Shown here in pieces: positions 3,108 to 18,693 of a stretch of 32,000 nt of DNA (positions within the stretch are counted from its first letter, which is position 1; each line of letters starts with the position of its first letter). Under the pieces are notes generated by a model. It saw only the letters and a list, made by a program, of their open reading frames with translations. It had not been told where the DNA came from and did not search any database. The DNA is from Candidatus Karelsulcia muelleri (GTDB lineage Bacteria; Bacteroidota; Bacteroidia; Flavobacteriales; Blattabacteriaceae), in assembly GCF_022985615.1 (NCBI RefSeq), contig NZ_CP094965.1, forward strand, positions 90,001 through 122,000, read 5' to 3'. The position numbers and the translations under genes are program-made.

Positions 3108-5813
3108 CTAATAAATAACTAAATTAATAATTTTGTTTTTAACTAAAACCAAAGTTTTAATTAACAAAAAATTAAAATTATTATTACATAAAATCCTATT
3201 AAGAAGTTTTATAGTATTTAGTGATAAATCAGTCTTAAGTTTGAATTTTAATTTACCATTTAAAGTAATAGGATAAATAATATCTTTTTTTAAGAGAAAT
3301 TTTTCATTAATTTTAGGAAAATTAGCAAAAAATATAGATTTTTTATTACCTAATTTTTCCCAAATTTCTTCTGAAATATGCGGAGCATAAAAACCAATTA
3401 AGATGGTAAAAGGTTCTAAAATTTCCCGTTTATTACATTTAATTTCTTTGAGCTTATTTAATAAAATCATAAATTCACTTATAGGAATATTAAAATGATG
3501 TGACTCTAAATTTTTCTTAATTTTACTAATCGAAATATTCAAAATCCTTTTTTCTTTATCAGAAGATTTACTTTCATCAATTATAAATTTCTTTTTATAA
3601 TGAAATAGGTTCCAAAATTTGTTTAAAAAAATGTTAACCCCTTTAATAGATCTTAAATTACAAATTTTATATTTTTCTAGTGGACCAAGAAACAATTCAT
3701 ATAAACGCAGAGTATCTGCACCATATTCTTCGCAGATTGAATCAGGATTTATAACATTAAATTTAGATTTAGACATTTTTTCAAAGAAACGATAGCAAAA
3801 AAATGTTTTATTTTCATAAATAAATTTAGCACGTTTAAATTCAGGGAGCCATTTTCTTAGTTTATTAATATTAACCTCATTATTATTTTTTACTAATTTT
3901 ATATCTATATAAATTTTCTGATATTTATTTATATTGTCTTTTATTAAAAAATAAGAGAAAAATTTATTCTTTTTTTTAAAAATTATAGCCGATTTTGCTA
4001 AAATCATACCTTGATTTAAAATTCTTCTAAAAGGTTCTTTAGAACTGACCAAGCCACGATCATATAAAAATTTGTATATAAATCTAGAATAAATTAAATG
4101 TCCTGTAGCATGTTCAATACCACCAATATAGAGATCAACATTTCTCCAATAATTTTCTATTTTTTTATCGACTAACAAATATAAATTATTAGGATCCATA
4201 TATCTTAAAAAATAGAAATTTGAAGCAGCCCAACTTGGCATAGTACAATTTTCAAGTTTTAAAAGATTTTTATTATCTATTAAAGAAGTATAGACGATTT
4301 TTTTTTTCTTTTTATTCCATGCAAAATAAAAATCTTTTATTTTTTTTTTCACTTTAGGAAAGGATAAAGGTAGGTATTTCTCAGAAATTGGAATAGGTAT
4401 TTTATTTTTAAAATAAATTGGGATAGGTTCTCCCCAAGATCGTTGTCTAGAAAAAATAGCATTATTAATTTTATATTTGATACAAATAAAGCCTATTTTT
4501 TTTTTAAGCATATATTTAACTATTAATACATTTGCTAGTTTAATATCAAGACCATTTAACAAATTAGAATTTGTACAAATGGTTTGATTGTTTTTCTTTT
4601 GAATAATTATTGGAATATTTAAGTTAAATTTTTTAGCCAAGAAAAGACTTTCAAAGTTTACAGAAGGGATACAAGGGATAATTTTTTTATTAAACTTATC
4701 TTTTACAAAATTGCTAAAATATATAGGAATTTTCTTTTTATTTAAGTCGTTAACTGCATATAATCCAGAAAAAATTCCTATTCGATTTTTATTATTTAAA
4801 CTCAAGTTAGTATATTTGTTAGTATATTTGTTAATGAGAGAACTACCAAAAGGCAAACAAAAGAAAGAAATACCAAAAATTAAATATGGTTTAGTAGTAA
4901 AAATTTCAAATTTTTGATTGATGATTTTTTTATCTTTATATAGAAAGAAAACTATCTTTATTCCCTGAGTTTTACCAATCCATTTTTTTTGAATAGATTT
5001 TAGTTTATTAGTACATTTTATCAATTTTAAGTCTTTTAAGAGTCTTTTTAAGTAAGCCTTAATTCTAAGACTCCATTGAAACATTGTTTTTTTAAAAACG
5101 GGATAACCACCAATTTTACTAAGCTTGTTTTCAATTTCTTCATTTGCAAGTACAGAACCTAACTTTGGACACCAATTTACTGAACTTTTAGAAAGAAAAG
5201 CTAATCGATAGTTTTGTAAAATTCTTTCTTTTTCCGAAAAATTAAAACTTTTCCATTGCAATGAATTAAATTTTTTCTTAAATCTAGAATAAGCAATAAC
5301 GTTTAAGTTACCATTCTTATTAAAAATTTTAATTAATTTCTTAATATCTTTAGCCTGTTCCTTGTCTTTATCATACCATGAATTAAAAAGTTTAAGAAAA
5401 ATCCATTGTGTCCATTTAAAATATTCTTTTTTATGAGTATATATAGTTCTGTCCCAGTCATAAGAAAAACCTAATTTTAATAATTGTTTACTATATTTTT
5501 TTATATTTAATTTAGTAATTTTATGTGGAGATTTCCCAGTCTTAATAGCAAATTGCTCTGTTGGTAATCCAAAAGAATCAAAACCAATAGGATGTAAAAC
5601 ATTATAACCAAGACTTTTTTTGAAACGTGAATAGACGTCTGAAGCTGTATAACCCAAGATATGGCCAACATGTAATCCATATCCTGAAGGATATGGAAAC
5701 ATATCTAAAACATAAAATTTTTTTTTATTTAAAATGTTTTTAGTAAGATATATTTTCTTTTTCTTCCAAATTTTTTGCCATTTTTTTTCTATTTTTTTAA
5801 AGTTATACTTCAT
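3108..5813 (-). CDS. leuS: Leucyl-tRNA synthetase
   Basis: 901 aa. Class I HIGH-type motif (GLHVGHILGY) and KMSKS (EKMSKSKFN). MFPYPSG start region is typical of LeuS. Confidence 0.95.
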   Translation of the reverse strand: MKYNFKKIEKKWQKIWKKKKIYLTKNILNKKKFYVLDMFPYPSGYGLHVGHILGYTASDVYSRFKKSLGYNVLHPIGFDSFGLPTEQFAIKTGKSPHKITKLNIKKYSKQLLKLGFSYDWDRTIYTHKKEYFKWTQWIFLKLFNSWYDKDKEQAKDIKKLIKIFNKNGNLNVIAYSRFKKKFNSLQWKSFNFSEKERILQNYRLAFLSKSSVNWCPKLGSVLANEEIENKLSKIGGYPVFKKTMFQWSLRIKAYLKRLLKDLKLIKCTNKLKSIQKKWIGKTQGIKIVFFLYKDKKIINQKFEIFTTKPYLIFGISFFCLPFGSSLINKYTNKYTNLSLNNKNRIGIFSGLYAVNDLNKKKIPIYFSNFVKDKFNKKIIPCIPSVNFESLFLAKKFNLNIPIIIQKKNNQTICTNSNLLNGLDIKLANVLIVKYMLKKKIGFICIKYKINNAIFSRQRSWGEPIPIYFKNKIPIPISEKYLPLSFPKVKKKIKDFYFAWNKKKKKIVYTSLIDNKNLLKLENCTMPSWAASNFYFLRYMDPNNLYLLVDKKIENYWRNVDLYIGGIEHATGHLIYSRFIYKFLYDRGLVSSKEPFRRILNQGMILAKSAIIFKKKNKFFSYFLIKDNINKYQKIYIDIKLVKNNNEVNINKLRKWLPEFKRAKFIYENKTFFCYRFFEKMSKSKFNVINPDSICEEYGADTLRLYELFLGPLEKYKICNLRSIKGVNIFLNKFWNLFHYKKKFIIDESKSSDKEKRILNISISKIKKNLESHHFNIPISEFMILLNKLKEIKCNKREILEPFTILIGFYAPHISEEIWEKLGNKKSIFFANFPKINEKFLLKKDIIYPITLNGKLKFKLKTDLSLNTIKLLNRILCNNNFNFLLIKTLVLVKNKIINLVIY

Positions 5814-9782: not shown

Positions 9783-10353
9783 GACCAGAATTAGTCAATG
9801 TCTTCCTTTAGATATAGATAATATTGATACTGATCAAATTATTCCAGCTAGATTTTTGAAAATTTCCTCTAGATTAAATTTATGCAAAAATTTATTTAGA
9901 GACTGGAGGTACTATAAAAATGGAAAAAAAACAAAATTTATATTAAATAATCCCAAATATACTGGAGAAATTTTAATTACAGGTAAAAATTTTGGGTGTG
10001 GTTCAAGTCGTGAACATGCCGTCTGGGCAATTATGGATTATGGAATTAAAGCAATAATTTCAAATTATTTTGCTGATATTTTTAAACAAAATGCATTAAA
10101 TAATGGGTTATTAGTCATAGAACTTAAACAAGATATTGTAAATTCTTTATTGAATAATATCTTAAAATTCCCTAAGAGTAAAATAAAAATTAATTTAAAA
10201 AAAGAATATATAGAATTTAAAAAAACAAAAATAAAATTTAAAATAAATTCTTATAAAAAAGAATGTTTTCTTAAAGGATATGATGATATCGATTTTTTAC
10301 TTAATTTAAAAAATAAAATAATTAAATTTGAAAACAAACTATTTTATAAATAA
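9769..10353 (+). CDS. leuD: 3-isopropylmalate dehydratase small subunit
   Basis: 194 aa. DNIDTDQIIPARFL and GKNFGCGSSREHA. Overlaps leuC by 14 nt. Confidence 0.9.
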   Translation: MERFKTRISQCLPLDIDNIDTDQIIPARFLKISSRLNLCKNLFRDWRYYKNGKKTKFILNNPKYTGEILITGKNFGCGSSREHAVWAIMDYGIKAIISNYFADIFKQNALNNGLLVIELKQDIVNSLLNNILKFPKSKIKINLKKEYIEFKKTKIKFKINSYKKECFLKGYDDIDFLLNLKNKIIKFENKLFYK

Positions 10354-12048: not shown

Positions 12049-12100
12049 TTACTTAAAAAACAGTTAGTTTTTGTATTTACTTAAAAAACAGTTTTTGTAT
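12049..12100. repeat. Duplication straddling the rnpA stop codon
   Basis: ttacttaaaaaacagttagtttttgtat (12049-12076) is followed by ttacttaaaaaacagtttttgtat (12077-12100). The second copy starts exactly at the rnpA stop. Confidence 0.85.
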
Positions 12101-12469
12101 TATATTTTCAAAACAGTTTTTTAGTTCATAAAAATTATGTAGTTTTTTTTTTAAATACATGAATATAATATAATATATTTTTTTTCTTTTAAATGGAATT
12201 ATTTTTTTATTCAATTGATAAGACCTTCTCATTAATCTTTTTATTCTATTTCTTTGATAAGATTTTATAATTTGTTTTTTTGAGACGAAGAAAGCTATTT
12301 TTACTTTAAAAGTAGAAGTAGAATTATATTTAGAAGTAGAAGTTTCTAGGTAGGCTACCTTCAATAAATTATTTTCTATTTTTTTACCATTACGAAATAT
12401 TGTATTTACTATTTTTTTTTTATTTATAATCTCTTTTTTTTTTAATTTATTGTTAGTAAAAAAATGCAT
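12077..12469 (-). CDS. rnpA: RNase P protein component (start re-set)
   Basis: KSYQRNRIKRLMRRSY is the RNR-type RnpA motif. The plausible start is MHFFTNNKLKK (ATG at 12469-12467). The upstream 34 codons of the track ORF read through repeats. Confidence 0.8.
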   Translation of the reverse strand: MHFFTNNKLKKKEIINKKKIVNTIFRNGKKIENNLLKVAYLETSTSKYNSTSTFKVKIAFFVSKKQIIKSYQRNRIKRLMRRSYQLNKKIIPFKRKKIYYIIFMYLKKKLHNFYELKNCFENIIQKLFFK

Positions 12470-12510
12470 GTTTTCTATTTTTATTCTTATTATAATTCTA
12501 ATAATTATTA

Positions 12511-12787
12511 GTAGAAGTAGACAAGTAGCACTTAAGTAGCAGTAGCAATTAATTATAAGTAGCAGTAGCAATTAATTAAAGTATTATTCTTCTACTTATG
12601 AGATATAGTATTTTAAGCCTAGATAGAAAAAAAAGTGTCTTAAGAAATTATTTGGTAGCTGGTAGTTGAAGAGTGTTATGTTATGAAGAGTGTTATGTTA
12701 TGAAGAGTGTTAATTTTGGAATTTTGGAATTGAGAGAGACAAGACAACAGAGAGAGACAGACAGACAACAGAGACAACAGACAACAT
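12511..12787. repeat. Repeat-filled rnpA/prfB divergent spacer
   Basis: 24-bp period taagtagcagtagcaattaatta x2 (about 12532-12579). tggtagc/tggtagt. 17-bp gaagagtgttatgttat x2.6 (12668-12712). attttgga x2. A 55-nt T-free A/G/C tract of gaga/caga/caac units (12732-12786). Confidence 0.9.
12598..12669 (+). pseudogene. Possible relic of the prfB 5' leader (pre-frameshift segment)
   Basis: A 23-codon ORF MRYSILSLDRKKSVLRNYLVAGS* ends in TGA. The ...VLRNYL resembles the ...LRGYL that precedes the +1 frameshift site of canonical prfB. It lies in frame 1 and the main prfB ORF in frame 2, the geometry expected for a +1 shift. Confidence 0.4.
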
Positions 12788-12802: not shown

Positions 12803-13624
12803 ATGAAAACTATTGAAAATACATTATTTAATTTAGAATTAGAAAATTTGTTATTTAAAAAAGAAGATAAATTAGGAGCTATTATCCAAATAACAGCAGG
12901 ACCTGGAGGTAATGAAAGTTGTGATTGGGTATTTTTATTACATAGGATGTACACTCGGTGGGCTGAAAAAAATAATTTTAAAATTAAAAAGGTTTATTTT
13001 TTTCGAGGAGAATTAGGAGGGTTTAAAACGATTACTTTTAAAATTCAAGGAATGTATGCTTTTGGATACTTAAAAGGTGAAAATGGAATCCATAGATTAG
13101 TGAGGTTATCTCCCTACAAAAATAAATCTAAAAGACACACTACTTTGGCTTCAGTATACATATATCCTTTAAGAAAGAAAGAAATTAAAATATCTATTAA
13201 AGAATCAGACATAAAATGGGAAACTTTTAGATCCAAAGGATCTGGAGGGCAAAATGTTAATAAAGTAGAAACTGGTGTAAGACTGATTCATAAACCCACT
13301 AATATAATTATAGTAAATATGGAGACTCGTTCTCAATACAATAACAAAATTAAAGCCTTACGTTTACTAAAAGAGAAATTATTTTCTCTCGAAATTAATT
13401 CCCAAAGATATAATCTAGAAAAAAATAAATCTCAATCTCAAGAAAAAAATAAATCTCAATGGGGGACACAAATAAGAAATTATATTATGCATCCTTATAA
13501 ATTAGTAAAAGATATTAGGACGAATTATGAAACAACTGATGTAAAATCAGTATTAAATGGTAACATAAATATTTTTTTAAAAAAGTATTTAGATAAAAAT
13601 AAAAATAAAAATAAAATATGCTAA
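12803..13624 (+). CDS. prfB: Peptide chain release factor 2, N-terminally truncated (domain 1 missing)
   Basis: 273 aa. Starts about where canonical RF2 reads ...LDIQAGSGG (here IIQITAGPGGNES.DW). GGQ is present (SGGQNVNKVETGVRL). HRLVRLSPY occupies the position of HRLVR.SPF. Confidence 0.85.
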   Translation: MKTIENTLFNLELENLLFKKEDKLGAIIQITAGPGGNESCDWVFLLHRMYTRWAEKNNFKIKKVYFFRGELGGFKTITFKIQGMYAFGYLKGENGIHRLVRLSPYKNKSKRHTTLASVYIYPLRKKEIKISIKESDIKWETFRSKGSGGQNVNKVETGVRLIHKPTNIIIVNMETRSQYNNKIKALRLLKEKLFSLEINSQRYNLEKNKSQSQEKNKSQWGTQIRNYIMHPYKLVKDIRTNYETTDVKSVLNGNINIFLKKYLDKNKNKNKIC

Positions 13625-14804: not shown

Positions 14805-16196
14805 TTAAATATGTATACTTTTTCCATAAGCCTTTTCAATAGCCTCAACTATAGATTCATTAATTGAAGGATGAGGATGGGTACTTTCTAATACGTCAAT
14901 AGGTGTAGTTTCCAAGTTTCTTGCGATTATTACTTCTGTAATGAGTTCTGTCACACCTTTTCCAATCATATGACATCCTAACCATTCACCATATTTTTTA
15001 TCAAATATGACTTTAATAAATCCTTCTGTTTCTCCATTAATTTTTGCCTTTCCTAAAGCCGAAAAAGGAAACTTACCTACTTTAATTTCAAAGCCTTTTT
15101 CTAAAGCTTCTTTCTCAGAGTAACCTACAAAGGCTATCTCAGGATTAGTATAAATACACATAGGTATATTATTGTAGTTTAATTTTTTAGTATTTAATCC
15201 CATCATTTTTTCTACACAAAGTTTGGCTTCTTGAGAGGCTACATGAGCTAATGAAAATCCAGGAATTACATCACCTATCGCATAATAATTTTTTCTATTA
15301 GTTTCATAATATTCATTAACTTTAATATGTCCATTTTTAGTCAATTTTATTCCTACATTTTCTAAGCCTAAATTCTTGGTATTTGGAGCCACCCCAATAG
15401 CAGAAATAAGGTAATCTACCTTTACTCTAATAGTAGAGTTAGTTTTTCTATTCTCTATTTCAATATTTATTTTTTGGGATTTTAAGTATTCAATTTCTTT
15501 TATTATGGAATTAGTTAATAGCTTTATTCCTTTCTTTCTAAAAGTTTTGCTAATTTCGATGGATATTTCTGTCTCTGCATTAGGTAAAATGTGGGAATTT
15601 TTTTCTACTATTATTACATTGGATCCAATAACGTTATAAAAATAAGCAAATTCTAAACCGATAGCACCTGAACCAATAATTAAAATATTTTTGGGTATTT
15701 CTCTTATTGACATTGCCCCTTTATAATTTACTAAATTGGGTATTTTAGTAAAATATAATTTTTTAGGTTTTGCACCAGTAGCTATTATTAATTTAGAAAA
15801 TTGATATTTTTTTATATTTTTTTTATTCTTTACAGTAATTGTATTTTCTTTGCAAATTTTCGCAGTCCCATATATTAATTTTATATCATTTTTTTTAATT
15901 AAAAATTCTACTCCTTTTTGGAGTTCCTCAACTATTTTCCTACTTCTATCTAAAATCTTTTCCAATTTTAATTCAACCTTTTGAACCTTTATTCCAAATT
16001 GGTTAGAAGTTTTAAAAAGTTGGAATAAATTAGCACTTTTCAATAACGACTTTGTCGGAATGCATCCCCAATTCAAACAAACTCCTCCTAATTCTTTTTT
16101 TTCTACGATTGCCGTTTTTAAACCAAATTGGGCAGCTCTGATTGCTGCCGTATATCCTGCTGGACCACTGCCAATAACTATTAAATCAAAATGCAT
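14805..16196 (-). CDS. lpdA: Dihydrolipoyl dehydrogenase (E3)
   Basis: 463 aa. GSGPAGY FAD-binding motif, redox-active GGVCLNWGCIPTK, and C-terminal THPHPS interface motif. Confidence 0.95.
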   Translation of the reverse strand: MHFDLIVIGSGPAGYTAAIRAAQFGLKTAIVEKKELGGVCLNWGCIPTKSLLKSANLFQLFKTSNQFGIKVQKVELKLEKILDRSRKIVEELQKGVEFLIKKNDIKLIYGTAKICKENTITVKNKKNIKKYQFSKLIIATGAKPKKLYFTKIPNLVNYKGAMSIREIPKNILIIGSGAIGLEFAYFYNVIGSNVIIVEKNSHILPNAETEISIEISKTFRKKGIKLLTNSIIKEIEYLKSQKINIEIENRKTNSTIRVKVDYLISAIGVAPNTKNLGLENVGIKLTKNGHIKVNEYYETNRKNYYAIGDVIPGFSLAHVASQEAKLCVEKMMGLNTKKLNYNNIPMCIYTNPEIAFVGYSEKEALEKGFEIKVGKFPFSALGKAKINGETEGFIKVIFDKKYGEWLGCHMIGKGVTELITEVIIARNLETTPIDVLESTHPHPSINESIVEAIEKAYGKSIHI

Positions 16197-16222: not shown

Positions 16223-16296
16223 TGCTCACGACTGGATTTGAACCAGCATAAACTACTACCTCAAAGTAGTGTGTATACCTCTTCCACCACGTAAGC
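16223..16296 (-). tRNA. tRNA-Leu (anticodon GAG) with a deleted long variable arm (74 nt)
   Basis: The reverse complement reads GCTTACG TG GTGGAAGAGGTATACAC A CTACT ttGAGgt AGTAG TTTAT GCTGG-ttcaaat-CCAGT CGTGAGC A. The D arm is Leu/class II type (TGGTGGAA..GGTA.ACAC) and the discriminator is A73. The variable region is only 5 nt. Confidence 0.7.
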
Positions 16297-16355
16297 TGAA
16301 ATGAAAATTAATAAATATCAAATCCCCTAACTTATCAAAAGTTAGAAGATAAATT

Positions 16356-16429: not shown

Positions 16430-16692
16430 CTAAAAATAAAAATGAATAGCCAATGTGTTGTGTTGTGTTAGGAAATAATGTTGGTCATTTGGAGATTATT
16501 TTATGTTACAATTTTTCAAGGCTTGGCTTTTTTCAAGGGAATAAAGAAGATAATCTTTTGACAGTGACTATTGGAAGAAAAGGAAGAAAAAAAATAGATG
16601 AGAGTTTTTTGATAAAAAACATAATTTTTGGTAAAAACTTGGTCAAAACATCCTTTAGAGATAGAATTATGGAATATAGTTTTTATTCAATC

Positions 16693-16766
16693 AGATGGTA
16701 CCTTAGATGGTACCTTAGATGGTACCTTACATGGTACCTTACATGGTACCTTAGATGGTACCTTAG
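16693..16766. repeat. (AGATGGTACCTT)6 12-bp array
   Basis: Six contiguous 12-mers. Units 4-5 read acatggtacctt. Each carries GGTACC. Confidence 0.95.
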
Positions 16767-16806
16767 TTAAATTACCTACTTTGGAATGCCTACTTTTGAA
16801 TGGGTT

Positions 16807-16998
16807 GCTGATCTTGCTGATCTTATCTTATCTGATCTTGCTGATCTTATCTTATCTGATCTTGCTGATCTTATCTTATCTTGCTTATCATCTTGCTTAT
16901 CTGATCTTGCTGATCTTATCTTATCTTATCTTGCTTATCTGATCTGATCTATCTGATCTGATCTATCTGATCTGATCTTGCTGATCTTATCATCTTGC
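16807..16998. repeat. GATC-dense composite array (gctgatctt / atcttatct / gatctgatctatct)
   Basis: I count about 15 GATC tetramers in about 190 nt. The top strand is pyrimidine-rich. Confidence 0.9.
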
Positions 16999-17051
16999 AA
17001 AAAATATACTATTTGCTACTTTAGCTCAAAATACTAATAAAGTATATGGAG

Positions 17052-17330
17052 TCACAAGTAGATAAGTAGATATAATATCACAAGTAGATAAGTAAGTAGA
17101 TATAATATAATATCACATCACAAGTAGATACAAGTAAAGTAAAGTATCACAAGTATCACAAGTAAACAAGTATCACAAGTATCACAAGTAAAGTAAAGTA
17201 TCACAAGTATCACAAGTAAACAAGTAAACAAGTAAACAAGTAAACAAGTAAACAAGTAAACAAGTAAACAAGTAAACAAGTAAACAAGTAAACAAGTAAA
17301 GTAAAGTAAAGTAAAGTAGATATAATAGCA
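17052..17330. repeat. cacaagta-family arrays, including (CAAGTAAA)11
   Basis: caagtaaa x11 at 17213-17300. Flanked by gtaaa x3, tatcacaag units and cacaagtagataagtagatataatat copies. Confidence 0.9.
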
Positions 17331-17363
17331 GATCAGTAGTTTTCGCAATATATGATGGTATAA

Positions 17364-17452
17364 TTCCTTAAGGAAGAACCTTAAGGAAGAAGAACCTAAG
17401 AACCTTAAGGAAGAAGAACCTTCCTTAAGGAAGAAGAACCCTTCAAGAAGAG
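17364..17452. repeat. CCTTAAGG-core array (ccttaaggaagaagaa units)
   Basis: Five imperfect units, most carrying the palindrome ccttaagg. Confidence 0.85.
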
Positions 17453-17522
17453 AATAATCCTAATAGACTATATAAGCTATCATATAATAATAAAAAAAAT
17501 AGGAATCTGTAATTCTAAAAAT

Positions 17523-17697
17523 ATTAAGAATAGGAATAGGAAACTCTTAGGAGTAGATGTTAAAAATCTTAATATTAATATTAAGAATAGGAATAGGAAA
17601 CTCTTAGGAGTAGATGTTAAAAATCTTAATATTAATATTAAATGTTAAAAATCTTAATATTAATATTAAATGTTAAAAATCTTAATATTAATATTAA
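17523..17697. repeat. 57-bp unit x2 followed by a 28-bp unit x3
   Basis: attaagaataggaataggaaactcttaggagtagatgttaaaaatcttaatattaat at 17523 and 17580. atgttaaaaatcttaatattaatattaa at 17614, 17642 and 17670. Confidence 0.9.
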
Positions 17698-17990
17698 GAA
17701 TAAGAATCTTAATATTAATATTAAGAATAAGAATAAGAATAAGAATAAGAATAAGAATCTTAATATTAATATTAAGAATAAGAATAAGAATAAGAATAAG
17801 AATAAGAATCTTAATATTAATATTAAGAATAAGAATAAGAATAAGAATAAGAATAAGAATCTTAATATTAATATTAAGAATAAGAATAAGAATAAGAATA
17901 AGAATCTTAATATTAATATTAAGAATAAGAATAAGAATCTTAATATTAATATTAAGAAAATAAGAATAAGAATAAGAATAAGTTTAATAT
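17568..17990. repeat. Array of about ten copies of an 18-nt perfect palindrome separated by variable (AATAAG)n
   Basis: cttaatattaatattaag equals its own reverse complement; first copy 17568-17585, last 17939-17956. Hexamer spacer lengths are roughly 1.5, 5.5, 5.5, 5.5, 4.5 and 2.5 units. Confidence 0.9.
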
Positions 17991-17996
17991 TAAATT

Positions 17997-18225
17997 AGTA
18001 ATAGGAATAGTAATAGGAATAGTAATAGGAATAGTAATAGGAATAGTAATAGGAATAGTAATAGGATTAGTAATAGGAATAGGATTAGTAATAGGAATAG
18101 GATTAGTAATAGGAATAGGATTAGTAATAGGAATAGGAATAATATAGGAATAGGAATAGGAATAGAATAATAGTTAGTAATAGGAATAGGATTAGTAATT
18201 AGTAAGTAGGAATAAATATAGTAGG
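17997..18225. repeat. (AGTAATAGGAAT)n 12-bp array grading into an 18-bp aggattagtaataggaat variant
   Basis: Read directly: about 6 copies of the 12-mer, then about 4 copies of the 18-mer, then degenerate units. Confidence 0.9.
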
Positions 18226-18235
18226 AAATTAGAGT

Positions 18236-18650
18236 ATCAGTATTATAGTATAGAGGATATATAATATGATAATACTATATATGATAGTATAATATATACT
18301 AATAGGATAGGATAATATGAGATAGTATCATAGATATCATATGATAGTATCCTATCATATGATAGTCTAATATGAGTATACTAATACTAATAGGATAGGA
18401 TAATATGAGATAGTATCATAGATATCATATGATAGTATCCTATCATATGATAGTCTAATATGAGTATACTAATACTAATAGGATAGGATAATATGAGATA
18501 GTATCATAGATATCATATGATAGTACTATCATATGATAGTCTAATATGAGGATACTAAGAGAAGATACCTTAAGAGTTGATGATGAGATAGTATCATAGA
18601 TATAGAAGATCATAGTTGATAGTTAAAGATAAGATATCATAGAAGAGAAT
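18236..18650. repeat. 88-bp minisatellite (about 3.3 near-identical copies) with degenerate flanks
   Basis: aataggataggataatatgagatagtatcatagatatcatatgatagtatcctatcatatgatagtctaatatgag... recurs at 18301, 18389 and 18477. The unit contains the palindromes atcatatgat and ctatcatatgatag. Confidence 0.9.
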
Positions 18651-18693
18651 TGAGTATACTTATTGGCAGAAGATTTCAAATTCTTTTTGTTTA

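Follow-up and report, generated by a model that had tools for sequence, protein, structure and literature searches.

A tRNA-Leu(GAG) gene of Candidatus Karelsulcia (Sulcia) muelleri has lost the long variable arm of class II tRNAs and, judging from how its sequence is conserved, it most likely remains a functional, arm-less tRNA-Leu rather than a dead gene. The gene lies in a stretch of 32,000 nucleotides that we analysed as a whole (referred to here as the window). The case contradicts a textbook generalisation, against which biochemistry and a bacterial precedent have already been published. What is distinctive about it is that the affected gene is a core gene of a symbiont with a reduced genome, in which a type I tRNA-Leu was born by in-place deletion and has been conserved since.

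A tRNA-Leu(GAG) gene with a five-nucleotide variable loop

Six tRNA genes were detected in the window by ARAGORN, one of them being the 74-nt tRNA-Leu(GAG), whose features are the following.

16223..16296, minus strand: tRNA-Leu(GAG) gene, 74 nt, type-I-like (ARAGORN; Rfam RF00005; Sulcia orthologs)
16248..16252, minus strand: variable loop UUUAU, 5 nt (covariance-model alignment, ortholog alignment, per-position table)
16260..16262, minus strand: anticodon GAG, reading CUU and CUC, followed by G37 (ARAGORN, anticodon position 35; sequence)

The Rfam model RF00005 matches 16223-16296 over its full length (model positions 1-71 of 71) with 53.3 bits and E = 6e-9 for the window. As this score is above the gathering score of 29 and ARAGORN agrees, the gene belongs to the tRNA family. 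Its RNA can be written as GCUUACG-UG-GUGG-AAGAGGUAUA-CAC-A-CUACU-UUGAGGU-AGUAG-UUUAU-GCUGG-UUCAAAU-CCAGU-CGUGAGC-A. It has an acceptor stem GCUUACG/CGUGAGC, U8, the discriminator A73 and a leucine-type D arm with a 3-bp stem (GUG/CAC), G13/A22 and the D loop AAGAGGUAUA. The anticodon loop, UUGAGGU, provides G34, A35, G36 and G37, the T loop is UUCAAAU, and CCA is not encoded in the gene. A preliminary description of the window, made from its letters only, had proposed a tRNA-Leu(GAG) with a Leu-type D arm, G37 and A73, all of which are borne out by ARAGORN, Rfam and direct reading. [quoted passage not shown] The last base of the variable loop, U48, is still able to pair with A15.

A class II tRNA has a variable region of more than 10 nt that forms a stem-loop, and the 5 nt (UUUAU) of the 74-nt gene fall short of this. 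In its structure the gene is a type I tRNA-Leu, with a variable loop in the range of 4-5 nt and a leucine anticodon (NAG or YAA) followed by a purine at position 37, here GAG and G37. As a length control we used 115 metagenomic tRNA-Leu(GAG) genes chosen by the same 39-nt 5' half. All 115 are 81-87 nt long, in agreement with the earlier statement that a long arm is normal in bacterial tRNA-Leu.

In-place deletion of the arm

The G+C content of the window is about 25%. Its Lpd shares 98% identity with the protein from a Candidatus Karelsulcia (Sulcia) muelleri genome of 152,970 bp and 76-93% with its counterparts in other Sulcia of 138-160 kb, against only about 60% for Sulcia of 190-287 kb. 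Planthopper Sulcia genomes span 137,729-180,379 bp (bioRxiv 10.1101/2025.05.16.654412), and we infer that the small-genome clade corresponds to the planthopper (Fulgoromorpha) Sulcia, an assignment that rests on size range and naming, not on host labels. Orthologs of the tRNA gene were found through its neighbour.

14805..16196, minus strand: lpd (dihydrolipoyl dehydrogenase), starting 26 nt downstream of tRNA-Leu; used to find orthologs

In all Sulcia loci retrieved via Lpd, lpd is closely preceded by a tRNA-Leu in the same orientation, next to a divergent tRNA-Met. The length of the tRNA and of its variable region differs among them as follows.

L003 and L004, 268-kb genome: tRNA of 85 nt; variable region of 16 nt, U-AUCU-AUUUA-AGAU-AU, with a 4-bp stem-loop
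L131, 189.8 kb, leafhopper-type: tRNA of 87 nt; variable region of 18 nt
L127, 190.8 kb, Sulcia-MSEV: tRNA of 76 nt; variable region of 7 nt, UAGAUUU
Window, L001, L125, L126 and L002, small-genome clade: tRNA of 74 nt; variable region of 5 nt

The aligned Sulcia tRNA-Leu orthologs have zero gaps outside the variable region. Since the alignment with the class II ortholog is gap-free, the 74-nt gene is the direct descendant of that ortholog, with the arm deleted in place. The loss of a class II long arm, which had been proposed from the window only, is thereby upheld: the ortholog at lpd in the 268-kb Sulcia carries an arm of 16 nt and otherwise aligns with the gene, and among related symbionts the gene is 74 nt long in five of the five small-genome lineages and has arms of 16-18 nt in L003, L004 and L131.

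Two further origins were considered and ruled out. A different tRNA that gained a GAG anticodon would be incompatible with the gap-free alignment to the class II Sulcia ortholog. Horizontal acquisition of a phage-type arm-less tRNA-Leu is incompatible with the alignment to the type II Sulcia ortholog and with the conserved position by lpd. It is also extremely improbable that the arm is missing from the sequence record only, as an artefact of assembly or annotation, because the 74-nt length is found in five independently assembled genomes. Nothing specific speaks for such an artefact, the nearest point being that the Sulcia-MSEV genome was assembled partly from nanopore reads (PMC7952229).

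We also compared the predicted folds of the different forms, using nearest-neighbour folding, which leaves out tertiary contacts and modified bases. For the 74-nt RNA, a rod of -27.8 kcal/mol comes out as the minimum-energy fold, compared with -20.0 for the cloverleaf. The rod is thus favoured by 7.8 kcal/mol in the 74-nt form, and by 4.3 kcal/mol in the 76-nt form; the 85-nt form is predicted to fold as a cloverleaf. According to these models, the arm may normally help the RNA to fold correctly.

Constraint on the short gene

The gene is exactly 74 nt long in all five small-genome lineages, with no further indels. Pairwise identity of the tRNA among these lineages is 90.5-96%, rising to 100% for the window against L001, and in the diverged pairs the third codon positions of lpd are 72-80% identical and the Lpd protein 75-85%; as tRNA genes are slow-evolving in general, a high identity is in itself less strong evidence than it might appear. 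Within the clade the tRNAs differ at positions 13, 34 and 38, in the D and variable loops and at a single base of the T loop, and the sole stem defect in the five lineages is A5.G68 in L002. Between Sulcia clades, both sides have changed in pairs 1-72 (G-C versus A-U) and 31-39 (U-A versus C-G), and pair 4-69 has gone from C-G to U-G. The discriminator A73 is present in the window and in eight of the eight related sequences, and U8, A14, A15, U48 and G18G19 are likewise invariant in these nine sequences. The tertiary elements U8-A14, A15-U48, G18G19, A20a and U54 U55 C56 A58 are all present and invariant in the tRNA-Leu compared. We do not find here the pattern of a tRNA pseudogene, that is, broken stems, lost invariant bases, indels and divergence at the neutral rate. 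The pattern appears to be that of a constrained, working tRNA; a gene dead since the base of the clade would look different.

The preliminary description had left the choice between a rare structural reduction of a bacterial tRNA and a dead gene. We consider it unlikely that the gene is dead or dying and that CUY codons are read by another tRNA, either imported from the host or, for example, a tRNA-Leu(UAG) whose unmodified U34 would read all CUN codons. A neutral stretch of 74 nt would be expected to diverge about as far as the third positions of lpd, whereas the tRNA is far closer to identity than these in the five lineages, its identity elements are intact, and its length is the same in five of five without additional indels. 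In favour of a dead gene, Sulcia is losing genes (an alaS remnant lies in the window and is deleted in the closest relative), the predicted minimum-energy fold of the 74-nt RNA is not a cloverleaf, and the anticodon has mutated to AAG in L126. Redundancy with a UAG isoacceptor is also possible, our view being limited to the window and part of the closest relative. Of the two readings first proposed, that of a reduced but working tRNA fits better with five lineages in which stems and identity elements are intact, and that of a dead gene is disfavoured.

A34, as found in the AAG anticodon, is unusual in bacterial tRNA-Leu. In the 153.8-kb Sulcia genome that carries it (L126, 9901-9974, GCA_053764195.1), the change of G34 to A34 is accompanied by U38 to G and U44 to G.

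A second loss, in leafhopper Sulcia

L127 corresponds to Sulcia-MSEV, the symbiont of the leafhopper Macrosteles sp. nr. severini (CP060020; PMC7952229). Its tRNA-Leu(GAG) (9904-9979) is identical to that of L131 (1393-1479) at all stems and conserved positions compared, except for an 11-nt deletion, AUCUUUUAUUA, by which the arm has lost its loop and its 5' strand, so that UAGAUUU remains. By this comparison, the loss in Sulcia-MSEV appears to be recent and independent of the planthopper event. It is too recent for conservation to be a guide to function in that lineage. Arm deletions in Sulcia do arise, and last for at least some time.

Among the other class II tRNAs, tRNA-Tyr(GUA) of the closest relative is 82 nt long, with a 13-nt variable arm, and tRNA-Ser(GGA) of Sulcia-MSEV is 84 nt long. 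Since both stay long, the loss of the arm is not a general collapse of class II structure. The bacterial tyrosine enzyme uses the long arm. Arm size is also important for serine identity (PMC9976931). Of the class II families, the one affected is that in which the synthetase of bacteria makes no use of the arm.

LeuRS, CUY codons and isoacceptors

The window encodes the following synthetase.

3108..5813, minus strand: leucyl-tRNA synthetase, 901 aa, bacterial type (homologs, alignment, PDB matches)

The full-length LeuRS of 901 aa that had been noted near the tRNA gene is confirmed at this position, and comparison with homologs indicates that it is intact. It matches PDB entries 3ziu, 1h3n and 4aq7 up to residue 900, and its similarity to the enzymes of Mycoplasma mobile, Thermus thermophilus and E. 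coli extends as far as the C-terminus. The motifs HVGH and KMSKS are retained, as are the leucine-specific and C-terminal domains. In the planthopper clade, LeuRS lacks some 20-25 residues that other Sulcia and Blattabacterium have, which makes it shorter by this number than the enzyme of other Sulcia; most of the missing residues belong to the editing-domain region (alignment columns ~340-380 and 450-465), and about 10 aa are missing at 548-558. We considered these deletions as a counterpart of the arm loss and saw no convincing link: as the arm-less leafhopper lineage does not have them, they cannot be tied to the change in the tRNA, and none of the enzymes compared has lost the leucine-specific or the C-terminal domain. 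The NCBI name for the planthopper-clade LeuRS is only 'class I tRNA ligase family protein'.

The usage of CUY codons was checked in 18 window genes, where CUU and CUC account for 138 of 730 leucine codons (19%), or about 19 per 1000 codons. A change of identity, with the arm-less tRNA charged with another amino acid and CUY codons ambiguous or reassigned, is very unlikely. Loss of a class-defining element could in principle alter acceptance or rejection by synthetases, and the LeuRS of the clade does have lineage-specific deletions in its editing-domain region. However, the CUY codons of LeuRS (n=23) coincide with leucine in six outgroup sequences as often as UUR codons do (48% and 45%, respectively, with 59% for CUR), and 6 of the 23 are located in columns that are leucine in all outgroups. 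The comparison of window LeuRS codons with these six sequences therefore gives no sign of CUY reassignment. A73 and the Leu-type D arm are also retained. G-U at 3-70 marks alanine identity, whereas pair 3-70 of this tRNA is U-A.

No second tRNA-Leu was found when the window was taken together with some 45 kb from the genome of the closest relative (GCA_053764315.1). The approximately 23 kb added around the LeuRS and RpoB genes of this relative contain tRNA-Ala, Ile, Thr, Tyr, Gly, Thr and Trp.

Proposed function of the arm-less tRNA

In an ancestor of the clade, the class II variable stem-loop was lost through a short deletion, which left a loop of 5 nt. The resulting 74-nt tRNA probably folds to an L shape, with contacts U8-A14, A15-U48, G18-U55 and G19-C56 all possible. 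The transcript would then be processed, and CCA would be added post-transcriptionally, given that CCA is not encoded and that a gene for the RNase P protein, which is required for 5' tRNA maturation, is present in the window.

12077..12571, minus strand: RNase P protein (rnpA; Pfam PF00825, E = 2.1e-12; context only)

[quoted passage not shown]

The key elements for E. coli LeuRS are A73, which is crucial, A15-U48, G18G19, A20a and the contacts G18:U55, G19-C56 and U54:A58; the anticodon and the long arm are not needed, and arm-less variants stay active (PMC9976931). From what is related of Larkin et al. 2002 in PMC9976931, E. coli-type LeuRS aminoacylates and edits arm-less tRNA-Leu provided that A73 and the D/T-loop contacts stay. 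The Sulcia tRNA keeps exactly the features that this account names as required (A73 and the D/T-loop contacts). As described there, the E. coli variants are laboratory constructs assayed in vitro, whereas the Sulcia tRNA is encoded by a natural gene with long evolutionary retention. Tolerance of arm-less tRNA-Leu is not universal among bacterial LeuRSs, since the E. coli enzyme and one Streptomyces LeuRS fail to charge the type I tRNA-Leu of S. coelicolor, a reaction for which residues of the leucine-specific domain matter (PMC6614811).

Comparison with known arm-less tRNA-Leu

The preliminary description had regarded class I-like tRNA-Leu as known from animal mitochondria and foreign to the bacterial norm. 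The norm holds, but mitochondria are not the sole precedent, as such tRNAs are found in S. coelicolor, in phage tRNA clusters and in bacterial tRNA arrays.

S. coelicolor has a type I tRNA-Leu(CAA) that is charged by its own LeuRS (Fan et al., Nucleic Acids Res 2019, PMC6614811). The length of its 5-nt loop counts more than the loop sequence, and removal of all long-loop base pairs from the type II tRNA-Leu(UAA) of the same organism leaves charging unharmed (PMC6614811). This tRNA resembles that of Sulcia in being bacterial, in its 5-nt variable loop and in being served by a single bacterial LeuRS. It differs in that its actinomycete host is free-living and has four type II isoacceptors beside it, whereas the Sulcia gene is a vertical descendant of a type II gene, has a GAG anticodon and belongs to a genome of only some 140-160 kb. 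For the Streptomyces tRNA charging is demonstrated, and the Sulcia tRNA is known here from its sequence.

Animal mitochondrial tRNA-Leu also lost the arm in a strongly reduced, AT-rich, maternally inherited genome, and retains A73 and A14 as identity elements (PMC9976931). In animal mitochondrial tRNAs, however, the conservation of the D and T loops is often lost too, and a dedicated mitochondrial LeuRS is used, whereas in the Sulcia tRNA the D and T loops are still canonical (G18G19, UUCAAAU) and no stem is missing.

Arm-less tRNA-Leu genes are abundant in phage tRNA clusters. We searched the viral contigs of IMG/VR with two anchored patterns (loci L132-L367, for example L134 and L135), and ARAGORN detected at least 330 tRNA-Leu of 73-79 nt, at 233 of 236 loci among the matches listed. 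On bacterial genome contigs, arm-less tRNA-Leu were found, among the matches listed, in arrays of 10-31 tRNA genes (L014, L019, L055, L064, L072, L073, L096 and L121), whose hosts include Chryseobacterium, other Flavobacteriales, Acidobacteriota, a cyanobacterium and a Haliangiales metagenome-assembled genome. Otherwise the matches listed from the pattern scan of genome contigs were mostly normal tRNA-Leu of 84-90 nt, and no Sulcia was among them. The arm-less tRNA-Leu of phage clusters and arrays share with the Sulcia gene the Leu-type D arm and a short variable loop (4-5 nt), and have NAG or NAA anticodons; tRNA-Ser and tRNA-Tyr beside them in the same clusters retain long arms. Unlike the Sulcia gene, which is a core chromosomal copy, they are accessory genes of mobile or viral DNA, often encode CCA, and are of putative function. 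The Sulcia gene is not derived from this type, given its alignment with the type II ortholog of Sulcia and its unchanged genomic position. In the part of the literature covered, we found no report of arm-less tRNA-Leu in symbionts, endosymbionts, reduced genomes or tRNA arrays, and no paper on their abundance in phage tRNA clusters.

Possible dispensability of the long arm

These observations can be read as showing that the long arm of bacterial tRNA-Leu is dispensable for decoding and is repeatedly lost where selection is relaxed or compactness is favoured, a generalisation to which we give an even chance. It would bring together one deep loss in planthopper Sulcia that has been kept since, a recent loss in leafhopper Sulcia and a wide loss in phage clusters, as well as the retention of the arm by tRNA-Ser and tRNA-Tyr, whose synthetases use it. 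The symbiosis of planthoppers with Sulcia is about 263 million years old, an age that belongs to the symbiosis and not to the arm loss.

If this is true, Sulcia offers a natural before-and-after series (85, 76 and 74 nt) on the role of the arm in bacteria. The three versions of the gene are natural substrates for testing whether the arm is required. A core, vertically inherited tRNA-Leu has passed in place from the class II to the class I form and has then been conserved, in parallel with mitochondria. It provides a polarised case of a tRNA whose structure was reduced as the genome shrank, and evolutionary support for the conclusion from biochemistry that the arm is not required by bacterial LeuRS. 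In practical terms, pipelines and classifiers that expect a class II tRNA-Leu may misscore or misname such genes in symbiont and phage genomes.

Other observations in the window

Between the divergent tRNA-Met and tRNA-Leu genes, at 16322-16350 on the minus strand, there is an AU-rich hairpin of 12 bp and, after it, a T-rich tail. The consensus scan describes it as terminator-like; it is conserved in L001, though not in lineages at a greater distance.

The 2.2 kb from tRNA-Met to smpB (16431-18693) is without an intact gene. Frameshifted remnants of alaS are found at 16482-16780 on the plus strand, 37-50% identical by tblastn to the truncated AlaRS of about 430 aa of L002 and L125. The small ORFs at 16453-17998 gave no match in a Pfam search, and tblastn led to the alaS remnants. 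In L001, the closest relative, nearly the whole counterpart of 16431-18693 has been deleted. From these sequences, alaS in the small-genome clade appears to have been truncated, then pseudogenised and then lost.

Finally, the release factor ORF at 12803-13624 (plus strand) encodes 273 aa, in which the PCRF domain is matched from profile position 74 onward, and its N-terminus looks shortened with respect to the versions of 348-367 aa in L125, L003 and L127.
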